64,000 bases of DNA from a virus (taxonomy: Duplodnaviria; Caudoviricetes). Below the pieces are notes generated by a model that saw only the letters and a program-made list of their open reading frames with translations, was not told the DNA's origin and ran no database searches. Of the stretch, positions 12,394 to 56,797 are shown in pieces (positions within the stretch are counted from its first letter, which is position 1; each line of letters opens with the position of its first letter). The position numbers and the translations under genes were made by a program. Where the stretch lies: positions 64,001-128,000 of the IMG/VR virus record IMGVR_UViG_3300013121_000029; one strand, 5' to 3'.

Positions 12394-12784
12394 GTTTGTG
12401 TCCTTTAATGTATGAAGTTAATGGGTGTTGATCGTTCAAAAAATCGGTTATTTGTTTTTTGCTATTAAAATATGAAGCGCCATCAGTTACTACAAAGCAA
12501 GACCATTTCCATTCGTAATGTCCTGCATTGAAGTTAAAACGAAGTTCCCAACAAGTAATATGTTCTTTCTTTTCTAAGAAGATACATTCAATTTCTAAAT
12601 TAATTGTTGCAACAGTTGAATCACTGATGGTTGGAGGCAATTCTACAAACCTAATTGAGCTAGGCAATCTCTCAAATGGTGAGAATTCATTTGTGTCTGT
12701 AAATAAATTTAATTTTGGATCTAATGTGAGATTAGACACATCTAACATTAATTCAACATACTTATTTGTATGATTGGGCCACAT
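12299..12784 (-). CDS. hypothetical protein
   Basis: 161-aa ORF with GAGGAG RBS. Confidence 0.6.
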   Translation of the reverse strand: MWPNHTNKYVELMLDVSNLTLDPKLNLFTDTNEFSPFERLPSSIRFVELPPTISDSTVATINLEIECIFLEKKEHITCWELRFNFNAGHYEWKWSCFVVTDGASYFNSKKQITDFLNDQHPLTSYIKGHKHEPATISQIARFLLSESSNSTSEDSIVLSNN

Positions 12785-38452: not shown

Positions 38453-38869
38453 TCAACTATAATTTAGAATTATTAAACCAGCATGTATTTTTGCATGACA
38501 GTTCTTACACACTAAAATACATTTTTCAATTTCGCATTTGACAGTTTCAATACTTTGTGTGTAAACGGAGGATAATTGGAAATTTTTTTGAGAAGGATCT
38601 AAGTGATGAAAATCTAAACATACAATTTCTTTCTCTCCACACACAGTACAAGCATTGTTTTGTTTATATTCACGAATATATTGCAATACTTTTTCTGCTC
38701 TTTTCTTGTTTCGAGTTAATATTGTTTCCTTATATTTCTGATAATGAGCATTACTACGAGCACGAGCACACACTTTGCATAAATGTTGATATCCTTTAGT
38801 TTGACACTTGTCTTTTCTAAATTCTGTTAATTTTTTTTCTTCGTTACAAATGCAACATTTTTTAAGCAT
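38453..38869 (-). mobile_element. HNH endonuclease inside the tRNA cluster
   Basis: CCIC, CKVC, CTVCGE...LDFHHLDP..K...KCILVCKNCHAKIH. Confidence 0.8.
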
Positions 38870-38924: not shown

Positions 38925-38997
38925 TGGCATCCCGAGAGACTTGAACTCCCAACTTCTGGTTTTGAAGACCAGCGTTCTGCCATTGAACTACACCCTT
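38925..38997 (-). tRNA. Trp-like tRNA with UCA (opal) anticodon and unpaired acceptor stem, possibly a pseudogene
   Basis: CTGGT-CT-TCA-AA-ACCAG; D and T arms intact; 3' strand GGGAT-G-CCA does not pair with 5' AAGGGTG. Confidence 0.6.
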
Positions 38998-39721: not shown

Positions 39722-39783
39722 TTTCTGTACTTTATAATAGGTAATGTATTTATTACATTATAATATGAGTATGAAAAAATTGA

Positions 39784-39879
39784 GGCACTTTACTAATACC
39801 AGTAGCGAATTGGTATTAAACGGCAGTTCCCGCCGACGCCTACCCAACCGTTAACGGTAACGGTCCTAAGGGTGGAGTT
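39784..39879 (-). ncRNA. structured repeat, copy 1, with 23S rRNA-complementary segments
   Basis: 72 bp identical to copy 2; three hairpins; CCTTAGGACCGTTA and TTCGCTAC. Confidence 0.65.
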
Positions 39880-40859
39880 CATCTTACATTTAAGTCGCGT
39901 AATCGCTGGCGATTAGGTTTATACATTGTATCTGTTACATAAGTGGTGTCGGAATCGTTTTGAATCAAAAAATTCGATAATGCATGATATCGTGATTTTG
40001 GATGTGCCTCGTTTGATTTTGTTCGTGCTGGTGGTGCTACTCCACTTAACTGTTGAAGCATTTCTTTTTTCATCATATCGAATTCTGATGCATGATAAAT
40101 TAATTCTTTTCGTCTATATCTAGCTGGGGCTCGCATCATGGTAGGGTCATCTGGTAAAACAGAACCATCCTTTTCTGCTTTCTTTTTTCCTGTTATGCCA
40201 CTCAAAACAAAATATTCAATTCGTAATGTATTATCAATTGGTGCTAATACTTCATGAACTAAAGATATGTTAGAAATCAATGTTTGTGAAATTCCGCCAC
40301 GAAATGTCCATTCTAAGCCACGATGTTTCATAAAAGCCTTAGCTTCATCACTAAATTCATAATTTTTAAACATATTATATTTGGTTGCTAACATATCAAA
40401 AAGTTTGTCATATGACAAACATGGACCTTTTTGATGTAAAAAAACCATAGATGATATTAACCCAACGTTAATTAATTTCGGAGACGCGTTGCCGTGTCGA
40501 CCACCTGGTTGTGTGGATCTCCGATATTGCATAAAATACATTGCACCTTCGGGAGTTTCGGCCCAAGAATAAATTTTTCCAGACTTGTCGATTTCATTAA
40601 ATTTTATAAGTTTTAATATGTCGGAAGCATTTTCTGCGTTTAATATAGTTTTATGGCCTAAGTTTATCACACGATACATATCACAATGCTTAACGCATTC
40701 CGGAAAACGACGCATTATTGCTTGAACTAAAATGTTAATCCGTGAACCTTTCGTTGGAAAGGGATTAGCAGCAATACGTTCTGTCGCTTGTATAAACTGT
40801 AAAAGTAAAACTTCCTCATTAACTGCTTCAAACAAAGGTATGATTTCATTAATTTTCAT
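39879..40859 (-). CDS. putative ADP-ribosyltransferase-like virion-internal protein
   Basis: MKINEIIPLFE; MYRVI...YSWAE...HEVLAP (R-S-E pattern); TAAATA at 40880-40885. Confidence 0.5.
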   Translation of the reverse strand: MKINEIIPLFEAVNEEVLLLQFIQATERIAANPFPTKGSRINILVQAIMRRFPECVKHCDMYRVINLGHKTILNAENASDILKLIKFNEIDKSGKIYSWAETPEGAMYFMQYRRSTQPGGRHGNASPKLINVGLISSMVFLHQKGPCLSYDKLFDMLATKYNMFKNYEFSDEAKAFMKHRGLEWTFRGGISQTLISNISLVHEVLAPIDNTLRIEYFVLSGITGKKKAEKDGSVLPDDPTMMRAPARYRRKELIYHASEFDMMKKEMLQQLSGVAPPARTKSNEAHPKSRYHALSNFLIQNDSDTTYVTDTMYKPNRQRLRDLNVR

Positions 40860-40890
40860 AATACAGTCCAATTTTATTGTATTTATTCGT

Positions 40891-40985
40891 GGCACTTCAC
40901 AAACACAGTAGCAAATTGGTATTAAACGGCAGTTCCCGCCGACGCCTACCCAACCGTTAACGGTAACGGTCCTAAGGGTGGAGTT
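40891..40985 (-). ncRNA. structured repeat, copy 2
   Basis: 40914-40985 identical to 39808-39879. Confidence 0.65.
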
Positions 40986-41018
40986 TATGTTATTTTTAAG
41001 TTACGTGTTTGTTTTTTA

Positions 41019-41742: not shown

Positions 41743-41850
41743 ATATTTATTCTGCTCTACATTCAGGTTTAATTTGTGTTGTTAAACGTTTTGATTGATA
41801 ATATGCTGATTTTACACCACATATCAATCTATGTATTCATACAAATAACT

Positions 41851-41924
41851 TGGTGGACTGTACTGGAATCGAACCAGCAATCTTCCGGCGAAGCATAAAC
41901 CACACGGAGCCATCCAGAATCCCC
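41851..41924 (-). ncRNA. tRNA/tmRNA-like element C
   Basis: starts GGGGATTCTGGAT; T-arm GCTGG-TTCGATT-CCAGT; ends ACAGTCC-A-CCA; no canonical anticodon arm. Confidence 0.55.
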
Positions 41925-41932
41925 ATAAAAAA

Positions 41933-42052
41933 TCACATTCAGAGGAGTCGAACCTCTCATGTGGATTGCATGCCCACACTCTGCGACCAAGCACTGTGTC
42001 AGTTACCCACAACCTTGTCCGAATTGAACGGACCAAACACAGGTGAATGTAA
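41933..42052 (-). ncRNA. 120-nt tRNA-like element B with two T-loop hairpins
   Basis: closing stem TTACATTC/GAATGTGA; AGAGG-TTCGACT-CCTCT and GTCCG-TTCAATT-CGGAC. Confidence 0.6.
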
Positions 42053-42056
42053 TTTT

Positions 42057-42176
42057 TGGTGGAGATGACGAGAATCGAACTCGCCCGTCTACAGCCCTAA
42101 TTCGTGGCCAGGTTATCACGCATTACCGTTTTAGTTTACTGGCGGAACTAAGTCTCGTTTATTGATACGAGCATCA
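42057..42176 (-). ncRNA. ~120-nt tRNA-like element A
   Basis: 3' end GCGAG-TTCGATT-CTCGT-CATCTCC-A-CCA. Confidence 0.55.
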
Positions 42177-42179
42177 AAA

Positions 42180-42266
42180 TGGTGGCCAAGGTCGGACTCG
42201 AACCGACACGACATCTCTGCCAATGGATTTTGAATCCACCCCATCTACCAATTACAGCACTCGGCC
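42180..42266 (-). tRNA. tRNA-Leu(CAA)
   Basis: GTGGA-TT-CAA-AA-TCCAT, long variable arm, A73-CCA. Confidence 0.9.
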
Positions 42267-42720: not shown

Positions 42721-43230
42721 TTACCTCAATACTTTCTTTATTTTATCCTTTATTCGAGTTTGTTTCAACTTTGACAAACCATCAATAAACGTTTTTCCAT
42801 CTAAATGTTCACATTCGTGTTGCACAGCAATTGCCATTAATCCATTATATATCTCTTCTACTAATTTTCCTTCCATGTTTGTATAATGAACATTTATAAA
42901 TTCGTATCTTACTGTTTCTTGAAATACTGATGGAAACGATAAGCATCCTTCTTTAATGCCAGTAGGAACACTTCTTGGTGATCTTGATGCCCACACAGGA
43001 TCGATCATTACTACCCATTCATTGTTATTTCTACTATTAGGAGCAAATACTACTATTCTTTTTAAATATCCAATTTGATTGGCAGCTAATGCATATCCAT
43101 CATTTTCGATACATATTTCTTTCATTCGTTCAATTACTTGTCTATCTTCATCTGTTAAATTATTAACAGGTTCGCATCGTTGTAATAATTTAGGATGTGG
43201 ATAATATAATAGATTATAATGTTTAGTCAT
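42721..43230 (-). CDS. def: peptide deformylase
   Basis: GYALAANQIG, EGCLS, QHECEHLDG. Confidence 0.92.
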   Translation of the reverse strand: MTKHYNLLYYPHPKLLQRCEPVNNLTDEDRQVIERMKEICIENDGYALAANQIGYLKRIVVFAPNSRNNNEWVVMIDPVWASRSPRSVPTGIKEGCLSFPSVFQETVRYEFINVHYTNMEGKLVEEIYNGLMAIAVQHECEHLDGKTFIDGLSKLKQTRIKDKIKKVLR

Positions 43231-56722: not shown

Positions 56723-56797
56723 TGGTGCTCGTGGAGGGAATCGAACCCACAACTAACGATTTTAGGGATCGTTTTTCTACCATTGAATTACACAAGC
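56723..56797 (-). tRNA. tRNA with CUA (amber) anticodon
   Basis: GCTTGTG/CACGAGC-A-CCA; ACGAT-CC-CTA-AA-ATCGT; TTCGATT T-loop. Confidence 0.75.

Follow-up and report, generated by a model that had tools for sequence, protein, structure and literature searches.

A family of structured phage RNAs with conserved two-part complementarity to 23S rRNA, duplicated in one uncultured phage

Background

Plasmid antisense RNAs such as CopA/CopT of plasmid R1 and RNA I/RNA II of ColE1 display short complements in hairpin loops on a folded scaffold, and pairing with the target starts at those loops. Here we describe an element built on similar lines, which occurs twice in a 64,000-nucleotide stretch of phage DNA (Caudoviricetes), positions 64,001 to 128,000 of the 197.6-kb IMG/VR virus record IMGVR_UViG_3300013121_000029, whose estimated completeness is 72%. 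We call this whole stretch the window. The plasmid RNAs target the mRNA or primer made from the opposite strand of their own locus, whereas the phage element complements host ribosomal RNA (rRNA), in two permuted pieces, and lies inside operons. An earlier sequence-only reading of the window had noticed the repeats and proposed a noncoding RNA (ncRNA) that binds the large ribosomal subunit of the host. Its observation is confirmed here and its interpretation is partly supported; that the RNA binds the ribosome is something we infer.

Other described systems share single features with this element. The termination upstream ribosome-binding site (TURBS) of caliciviruses is also an rRNA complement carried by an mRNA at the junction of two cistrons, where it tethers the small subunit for termination-reinitiation. 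It lies upstream of a stop/start overlap and matches the 18S rRNA of the eukaryotic small subunit, whereas the phage element lies downstream of a stop codon and matches large-subunit rRNA. Small RNAs (sRNAs) derived from 3' untranslated regions (3' UTRs) in bacteria and phages likewise come right after a stop codon, and some relatives of our element end in a hairpin and U-run. The known ones, however, target mRNAs through Hfq or ProQ, whereas the window copies have no terminator and their presumed target is rRNA. The intergenic RNase III sites of T7 and the stem-loop boundaries of T4-type phages are likewise structured, stand between cistrons and sometimes flank small cassettes, but they have neither loop sequences fixed across unrelated phages nor complementarity to rRNA. 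To our knowledge, and in the literature we searched, there is no report of a bacterial or phage RNA whose action is to pair with rRNA, whether mature or maturing. A synthetic peptide nucleic acid (PNA) against helix 69 (H69), antisense to the same region of 23S rRNA, inhibits growth of E. coli (Kulik et al. 2017, as cited in PMC7038079). The region is therefore within reach of an antisense oligomer. The PNA is man-made, contiguous and delivered from outside, whereas the phage element is natural and in two pieces.

Results

Two repeats that complement 23S rRNA

The GC-rich direct repeats with 72 identical base pairs that started this work are real. They lie at 39784-39900 and 40891-41006, and both are read on the minus strand, where the earlier transcription of the RNA agrees with the sequence. 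Over 101 nt, 39800-39900 and 40906-41006 share 93% identity, and the longest perfect tract is 72 nt (39808-39879 = 40914-40985). BLAST and the covariance model described below find only these two copies in the whole record.

In the E. coli rrlH gene TAACGGTCCTAAGG stands at 23S positions 1917-1930 and GTAGCGAA at 1930-1937. Minus-strand RNA complements both stretches, the first with the 14-mer CCUUAGGACCGUUA (39858-39871) and the second with UUCGCUAC in a hairpin loop (39802-39809). Locating them on rrlH bears out the 14-nt and loop complements that had been claimed, and the C>U change in copy 2 does keep the pairing as a G.U wobble. The pieces are in permuted order, the halves 48 nt apart, and the positions on rrlH agree with the earlier view that this is not a captured rRNA fragment. 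The two motifs that the wider family carries, CCUUAGGACC and UUCGCUAC, together make the Watson-Crick complement of 23S 1921-1937. This target, which lies at the subunit interface, comprises the 3' strand of H69 and the strand that leads on into helix 70.

We shuffled an 87-nt element 2000 times and compared the shuffles with 16S and 23S rRNA. An exact match of at least 14 nt arose twice; the longest match was mostly 8-9 nt, and it was 10 nt or more in ~20% of shuffles. By this count it is unlikely that the 14-mer matches by chance. The 8-mer alone would be unremarkable, and its weight comes from abutting the first match on the target. Two other matches, GGCAGCAGCCGCC sharing 10 nt with 16S 519-528 and GCUCACU sharing 7 nt with 23S 1099-1105, were dropped since such lengths arise in ~20% or more of shuffles.

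RNAfold folds copy 1 into three hairpins, all on the minus strand. The P4 stem CC-ACCC / GGGU-A-GG encloses an inner hairpin, P4a, GACCGUUA-CCGU-UAACGGUU (39836-39877). It is followed by the GC hairpin P3, CGGC-GGGAACU-GCCG (39821-39835), and by P2, UAAUACCA / UGGUAUUA with the loop AUUCGCUAC (39793-39819). Alignments identify the 3' tail AAGUGCC (39784-39791) as the counterpart of AAGUGAGC in the family. In the 14-mer the CC pairs in P4, GACCGUUA is the 5' arm of P4a, and the UUAG is free by its unpaired probabilities. Copy 2 does not form P2 because the 3' arm of that hairpin is mutated. The three hairpins described in the sequence-only reading thus stand for copy 1 but not for copy 2, and its closing stem, GGCG/UGCC, is on the analogy of relatives more plausibly a pseudoknot in which the P3 loop pairs with the 3' tail. 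In the window the P3 loop (GG-ACU) and the tail (AGU-CC) can pair at 5 of 6 positions, with one mismatch.

A widespread family of phage RNAs

The covariance model, R1, was built from 63 typical members from other phages, with the window left out. It matches copy 1 at 39783-39878 with 39.5 bits (E 5e-7) and copy 2 at 40891-40984 with 34.5 bits (E 7e-6), each spanning model positions 1-90 of 90. The two repeats belong, as copies of a single member, to a widespread family of structured phage RNAs. The earlier claim of a structured RNA element on the minus strand is upheld, and the sizeable open reading frames (ORFs) around the copies run in the same direction.

An exact scan of IMG/VR for both motifs in the order and spacing of the window returned 47 loci, while the same motifs in swapped, rRNA-like order returned 0 loci in viral contigs. 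The 47 loci share further blocks, GGCGGCUGCUGCC and a 3' AAGUGAGC, and a scan on these blocks that names neither 23S motif returned at least 120 loci with 126 unique elements. Altogether, contigs of uncultured phages contain more than 150 members, and R1 finds one copy per locus in 82 fetched loci of ~9 kb each. A separate scan for CGGCAGTTCCCGCCGAC gave only chance matches, in GC-rich phages.

Outside these contigs our searches found very few candidates. One genome from each of ~185,000 bacterial and archaeal species gave 35 pattern matches, of which R1 accepts one. This one member found among them (L210, 4112-4200) sits on a 183-kb contig of a Haliscomenobacter sp. metagenome-assembled genome. 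Possibly the contig is a large phage that was binned together with its host, which would hint at a Bacteroidota host for some members. BLAST of the window region and of a typical member against 50,697 cultured phage records gave no match. At E<=10 a single 27-nt match appears, in Limnohabitans phage DC31, at a locus that R1 does not recognise. There (PQ492658.1 ~12640-12704; L177 1497-1560), three bases past a tRNA-Tyr, stand CCCCUUAGGACCGUUGUCGCUAACGGUUA, a hairpin and AGGCGUC. The sequence is almost identical to the 5' half found in one of the variant classes; it has no typical P3, P2 or tail, and it may be a distant relative in a cultivable system.

An Rfam search had been put forward as a check, and no existing family matches. 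Rfam 15 gives only tRNAs in the window and nothing at the gathering threshold in the loci of 12 relatives; at E<=10 there are sub-threshold chance hits, the best of which over the element scores 17.6 bits against a 45-bit cut-off. Full-text literature searches on the motifs and on the idea found no published description of the family.

Variable stems

Across the family P4 closes a junction that holds CCUUAGGACC. Many members add P4a inside it, and the shortest, of ~74 nt, have none. P4 is made by 29 distinct helices among the relatives. P3 is made by 27, with 133 Watson-Crick, 12 G.U and 2 A.C pairs, and its outer pair is GC in 36, AU in 26, GU in 12 and CG in 7. P2, a longer hairpin with the 9-nt loop AUUCGCUAC, is made by 44 distinct helices with 231 Watson-Crick, 14 G.U and 6 A.C pairs, and its closing pair alternates between G-C and A-U. 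When the P2 segment is folded alone the loop is displayed in a hairpin in 63 of 75 distinct relatives, as against 8% with shuffled flanks.

In five divergent members (L022, L024, L031, L051 and L058) the tail changes together with the P3 loop so that 6-8 pairs are kept, as judged by eye; an automated check of this pairing recovered only L031 (6 pairs) and L051 (8 pairs). To judge from these sequences the joint change indicates a pseudoknot. In the typical class the same pairing requires two G.U pairs and a bulge. A different long-range pairing, proposed by RNAalifold between the P2 loop and the 3' tail (UUCGCU / AGUGAG), was rejected: its pairs never covary, and it is lost wherever the tail differs while the loop stays. 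RNAalifold on a MAFFT alignment of all 131 elements gave no structure, the alignment having register errors.

Three further loci (L005, L008 and L036) have divergent scaffolds in which P3 and the pseudoknot are missing, and R1 gives them weak scores. Both motifs are still there, arranged as in the rest of the family and placed immediately after a stop codon, and a U-run follows the P2 hairpin. These loci came from a pattern that requires both motifs, for which ~0.3 chance matches are expected by a rough estimate assuming a ~100-Gb database.

What the family keeps

Conservation was counted in an unbiased set, 113 unique elements drawn from the 126 and picked on P3 and the tail only. The junction motif CCTTAGGACCG (CCUUAGGACCG as RNA) is exact in 89 of the 113 (79%), and CCUUAGG (DNA CCTTAGG) is present in 111. 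The commonest change in the 10-mer, A to G in 10 elements, would keep a wobble with U1923, and A to U is seen in 3. The loop motif ATTCGCTAC, displayed in the loop as AUUCGCUAC, is exact in 74 (65%), and CGCUAC is kept in most of the others. Conservation does not extend to the GUUA end of the window's 14-mer (the complement of the TAAC at the start of 23S 1917-1930), and 31 of the 126 unique elements have the 14-mer in full. The complement conserved across the family is CCUUAGG(A/G)CC plus (UU)CGCUAC, that is 23S 1921-1930 plus 1930-1935/37. Copy 1 carries both family motifs; copy 2 has UUUGCUAC in the loop and a broken stem.

The sequence-only reading had proposed looking for homologs that keep the 23S-complementary segments while their stems change, and the covariance model and scans find just that. 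Its complementarity of 14 + 8 nt is present in the window, but the family keeps 10 + 6-8 nt and the window's 14-mer is mostly paired internally.

The P2 loop has more than one class. Instead of UUCGCUAC, a loop of the UUACGCCAGA type is seen in L060, L064, L072, L074, L076, L080, L111, L152, L162 and L172. This loop complements 23S 1971-1979, which by complementarity would be the opposite strand of the same rRNA helix.

These patterns bear on two other explanations. One is that the element acts as DNA, as a captured piece of rDNA or as the target of a homing endonuclease, given that the 23S site is the I-CeuI site, that the plus strand bears TAACGGTCCTAAGG and GTAGCGAA, and that an HNH endonuclease gene lies ~1 kb away (38453-38869). 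Yet permuted halves 48 nt apart leave no contiguous recognition site, conservation is limited to 10 + 6-8 nt, the stems covary, and the swapped, rRNA-like order is absent from viral contigs. The gene between the repeats, P0001, matches no endonuclease family in Pfam or PHROG, and Rfam reports no intron family at the element. We consider a role at the DNA level very improbable.

The other is that the conserved bases are the core of a self-contained functional RNA, a protein or ligand site or a catalytic core, and that the likeness to 23S is a by-product. The fold is complex, with a probable pseudoknot, and ~40 positions are highly conserved, among them GGCGGCUGCUGCC and AAGUGAGC, for which there is no significant match in rRNA; part of the junction motif pairs internally, and one of the alternative loop classes has an internal partner. 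However, two conserved segments complement adjacent stretches of a single site, when the 14-nt match alone arose in 2 of 2000 shuffles with the adjacency uncounted, and the motifs persist in scaffolds that lack P3 and the pseudoknot. No known ribozyme or riboswitch family matches, and in the ~30% of loci with a promoter between the element and the next gene the element is no 5' leader. This explanation is unlikely in our judgement, though it is the most serious of the competitors.

Strand and gene context

In most loci the strand antisense to 23S is also the one that serves as mRNA. In 113 of 131 elements a same-strand ORF ends in the interval from 40 nt before the start of CCUUAGG to 10 nt beyond it, in most cases within 10 nt, and in 118 of the 131 a same-strand ORF starts shortly downstream. 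In 31 members the UAG of CCUUAGG is itself the stop codon of the upstream gene (for example L017 3446-3451), and therefore the last codons of that gene make the 5' strand of P4. In both P2 and P3, G.U pairs are more numerous than A.C pairs, and minimum free energy favours the minus strand weakly (76 vs 52, p = 0.02, the sequences not being independent). We hold with high confidence that the minus strand is the RNA strand.

Two candidates were set aside here. AT-rich, -10-like boxes upstream had suggested a plus-strand, 23S-sense mimic RNA with its own promoter, which is disfavoured by flanking ORFs that are co-directional with the other strand in ~87-90% of loci. A recoding signal at CUU-AGG or UAG was dropped because the upstream ORFs end in differing frames relative to the motif. 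Many contigs have an ORF of 885-886 aa, the size of T7 RNA polymerase, a few hundred bases downstream, and going by the size of this ORF alone they may be T7-like. Antisense transcription is not expected in T7-like phages.

Two arrangements follow the tail. In one, 1-26 nt of AT-rich leader, in many cases lacking a Shine-Dalgarno sequence, lead to the next start codon. In the other a sigma-70-like promoter, found in ~30% of loci, precedes a gene that has a Shine-Dalgarno sequence. The element thus ends one unit and may precede another. Proteins encoded beside the element form 97 unrelated groups (65 singletons), and the recurring ones have no known function except a small regulator-like protein. 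The sequence-only reading had suggested that the RNA guides a modification of rRNA, or repairs or shields it. This finds no support, in that no enzyme gene travels with the family. A discrete ncRNA, as it had supposed, is not borne out either: no promoter or terminator stands out near either window copy in our scan, and the element sits in a string of co-directional genes.

This context invites the explanation that the element is mainly punctuation in mRNA, a fold at the end of a cistron that halts exonucleases, marks processing or ends transcription. The element starts 3-10 nt past the stop codon, or includes it, in most loci, and it fills the intergenic space, with the next start codon a median of 24 nt past the tail. 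The P2 hairpin and U-run of L005, L008 and L036 look like an intrinsic terminator, the promoters just mentioned follow in ~30% of loci, and in T7-like contigs the element occupies the position where T7 has its RNase III sites. Tight spacing to the stop codon is also what genome compaction alone would give. Punctuation leaves unexplained why loop and junction sequences stay fixed amid varying stems, and in the scan neither window copy has an intrinsic terminator, a GC-rich hairpin with an immediate U-tract. As the main function it seems to us unlikely, slightly more so than a self-contained RNA, but such a role can coexist with pairing to rRNA.

Does the RNA pair with the large subunit?

The analysis shows the fold, the family, the strand and the conserved complementarity. 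The reading we favour goes one step further: the RNA would base-pair with 23S 1921-1937 while large subunits are immature or free. The element would be transcribed together with the surrounding minus-strand genes. Its three helices and the pairing of P3 loop and tail would form a scaffold for the two conserved segments, with CCUUAGGACC presented at the junction that P4 closes and UUCGCUAC displayed by the hairpin loop of P2. The RNA would then base-pair with the target before the mature fold locks, in late pre-50S particles and perhaps in free 50S subunits, and so hold, block or tether large subunits. Helices H67-H71 are reported to be highly unstable in late 45S assembly intermediates (PMC3737534). 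Cofolding with 23S 1900-1985 gives a gain of -22 kcal/mol for a typical member and -25 kcal/mol for a minimal one, where shuffled sequences average about -7. The P2 loop has a mean predicted unpaired probability of 0.70 in the family and of 0.95 in copy 1.

Many points weigh against this reading and should be stated together. In the mature ribosome 1921-1924 lie within the H69 stem, and complementarity suggests pairing of 1930-1935 with 1974-1979, so that the 70S ribosome offers no free target. The CCUUAGGACC 10-mer has an unpaired probability of 0.42, no more than the rest of the element, and in the window only UUAG, 4 of 10 junction-motif bases, is exposed because GACCGUUA forms P4a. The window copies also cofold less convincingly. 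Copy 1 reaches -14.5 kcal/mol, barely beyond its best shuffle (-13.7), and copy 2 reaches -17.9 where its best shuffle is stronger (-20.9). Substitutions at the two U's of the loop break the pairing with 23S, about a third of members bear other P2 loops (UUACGCCAGA, GAGUCGUGCCC), and many of the UUACGCCAGA class hold GGCGUC, which is able to pair internally with that loop. The wobble evidence for the strand is modest (34 G.U vs 20 A.C, p = 0.08). Finally, it is not evident what a phage would gain from binding or blocking large subunits.

On balance we put the probability of pairing at about 45%, somewhat short of even odds. What the pairing would do is more tentative still. The RNA might be a natural antisense RNA that clamps 23S 1921-1937 by its two displayed segments and thereby controls large subunits, either by blocking late 50S maturation or subunit joining, or by tethering 50S subunits to phage messages so that privileged translation goes to the next gene, often one that lacks a Shine-Dalgarno sequence. 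We think this version possible, but would not be surprised to see it fail.

The duplicated arrangement and P0001

In the window the two repeats bracket P0001, an orphan gene of 326 aa (39879-40859, minus strand) that is not part of the RNA family. The minus strand also carries every sizeable neighbouring ORF and all nine called tRNA genes of the window. Copy 1 is intact (39784-39885). It lies directly 3' of P0001, whose UGA stop (39881-39879) ends 7 nt before CCUUAGG and is followed by P4/P4a, P3, P2 and the 3' tail. Copy 2 (40891-40991, minus strand) comes after a 152-aa ORF and before P0001 and is partly decayed. Its first ~70 nt, comprising P4, P3 and the 5' arm of P2, are the same as in copy 1, and it differs by the loop UUUGCUAC and the mutated 3' arm of the last hairpin.

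The repeat reaches ~21 nt further upstream than the sequence-only reading had it (39880-39900 and 40986-41006). At copy 1 this stretch is the end of P0001, so the duplicated unit is a gene end plus the element. At copy 2 the ~21 nt at 40986-41006 (minus strand) resemble the last seven codons and stop of P0001 and form a short open frame, outside any gene, that stops at the same place as in copy 1. By sequence this looks like a remnant of a gene end duplicated along with the element. The perfect tract of 72 nt between diverged flanks looks as though two older copies had recombined or undergone gene conversion. We take the duplication around P0001 to be a local event of this phage, with copy 2 decaying. 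A search for the empty site in relatives found one weak relative of the upstream gene only.

Such an arrangement raises the explanation that the element is a linker for recombination, or the boundary of a mobile cassette, used in gene swapping. Direct repeats flank a single orphan gene here, the identical tract suggests a recent exchange, neighbours vary between phages over the 97 protein groups, and T4-type phages have repeated promoter/stem-loop boundaries of this kind. Against this, the 82 fetched loci have one copy each and this genome has only two, the stems are kept by compensatory change, which points to a function as RNA, and the four P0001 homolog loci read are without the element. 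We regard a linker as improbable, clearly more so than punctuation, and return to P0001 itself.

P0001 has no Pfam or PHROG match, and so no LAGLIDADG, HNH, reverse transcriptase or other endonuclease family is indicated. A k-mer homolog search and a search of viral loci found nothing, while a full HMMER scan of 1.8 billion representatives found 11 remote homologs. Four loci of three of these homologs were read and all are without the RNA element, so the bracketing of P0001 is local to this phage. An AlphaFold (AF2) model from the homolog alignment has a mean pLDDT of 70. Foldseek places toxins with the ADP-ribosyltransferase (ART) fold in its top 10 ranks and most ranks down to 27, weakly (E 2e-3 to 1e-2, TM 0.2-0.36); the fold weakly resembles pertussis S1, NatT, PltA, CARDS and TreX, and the ESM Atlas agrees. 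R63, Q143 and E203 are invariant in 12 sequences; the catalytic pattern of the ART fold is R / S-x-S / E. The model makes an ART-like fold possible, and from adjacency one might even imagine such an enzyme using the RNA to find the ribosome.

Neighbouring features

Several other features lie on the same strand or nearby. A partial tRNA at 38934-38990 (minus strand), recognised by Rfam (47.6 bits, model positions 8-63) and not called by ARAGORN, adjoins the HNH gene. One of the nine tRNA genes, at 56723-56797 (minus strand), has a CUA anticodon and is labelled tRNA-Pyl by ARAGORN; it is likely an amber suppressor. The stretch at 41850-42180 is GC-rich (~50% against ~30% around it) and holds two similar 25-nt segments ending in GAATCGAAC, like tRNA T-arms, and no tRNA is called there. 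A peptide deformylase gene (42721-43230, minus strand; Pfam PF01327, E 3e-38) belongs to the same gene string as the element.

Implications

What the window contributes is a rare duplicated arrangement, one intact and one decaying copy with an orphan gene between them. It led to a large, well-folded family of phage RNAs that is absent from Rfam, and this holds even if the 23S reading fails. The family offers several handles in its two short motifs, its compensatory stems and its minimal form of ~74 nt. If the 23S reading is true, these phages would have a new viral route to seize the translation machinery, aimed at a target so conserved that the RNA would work across hosts.

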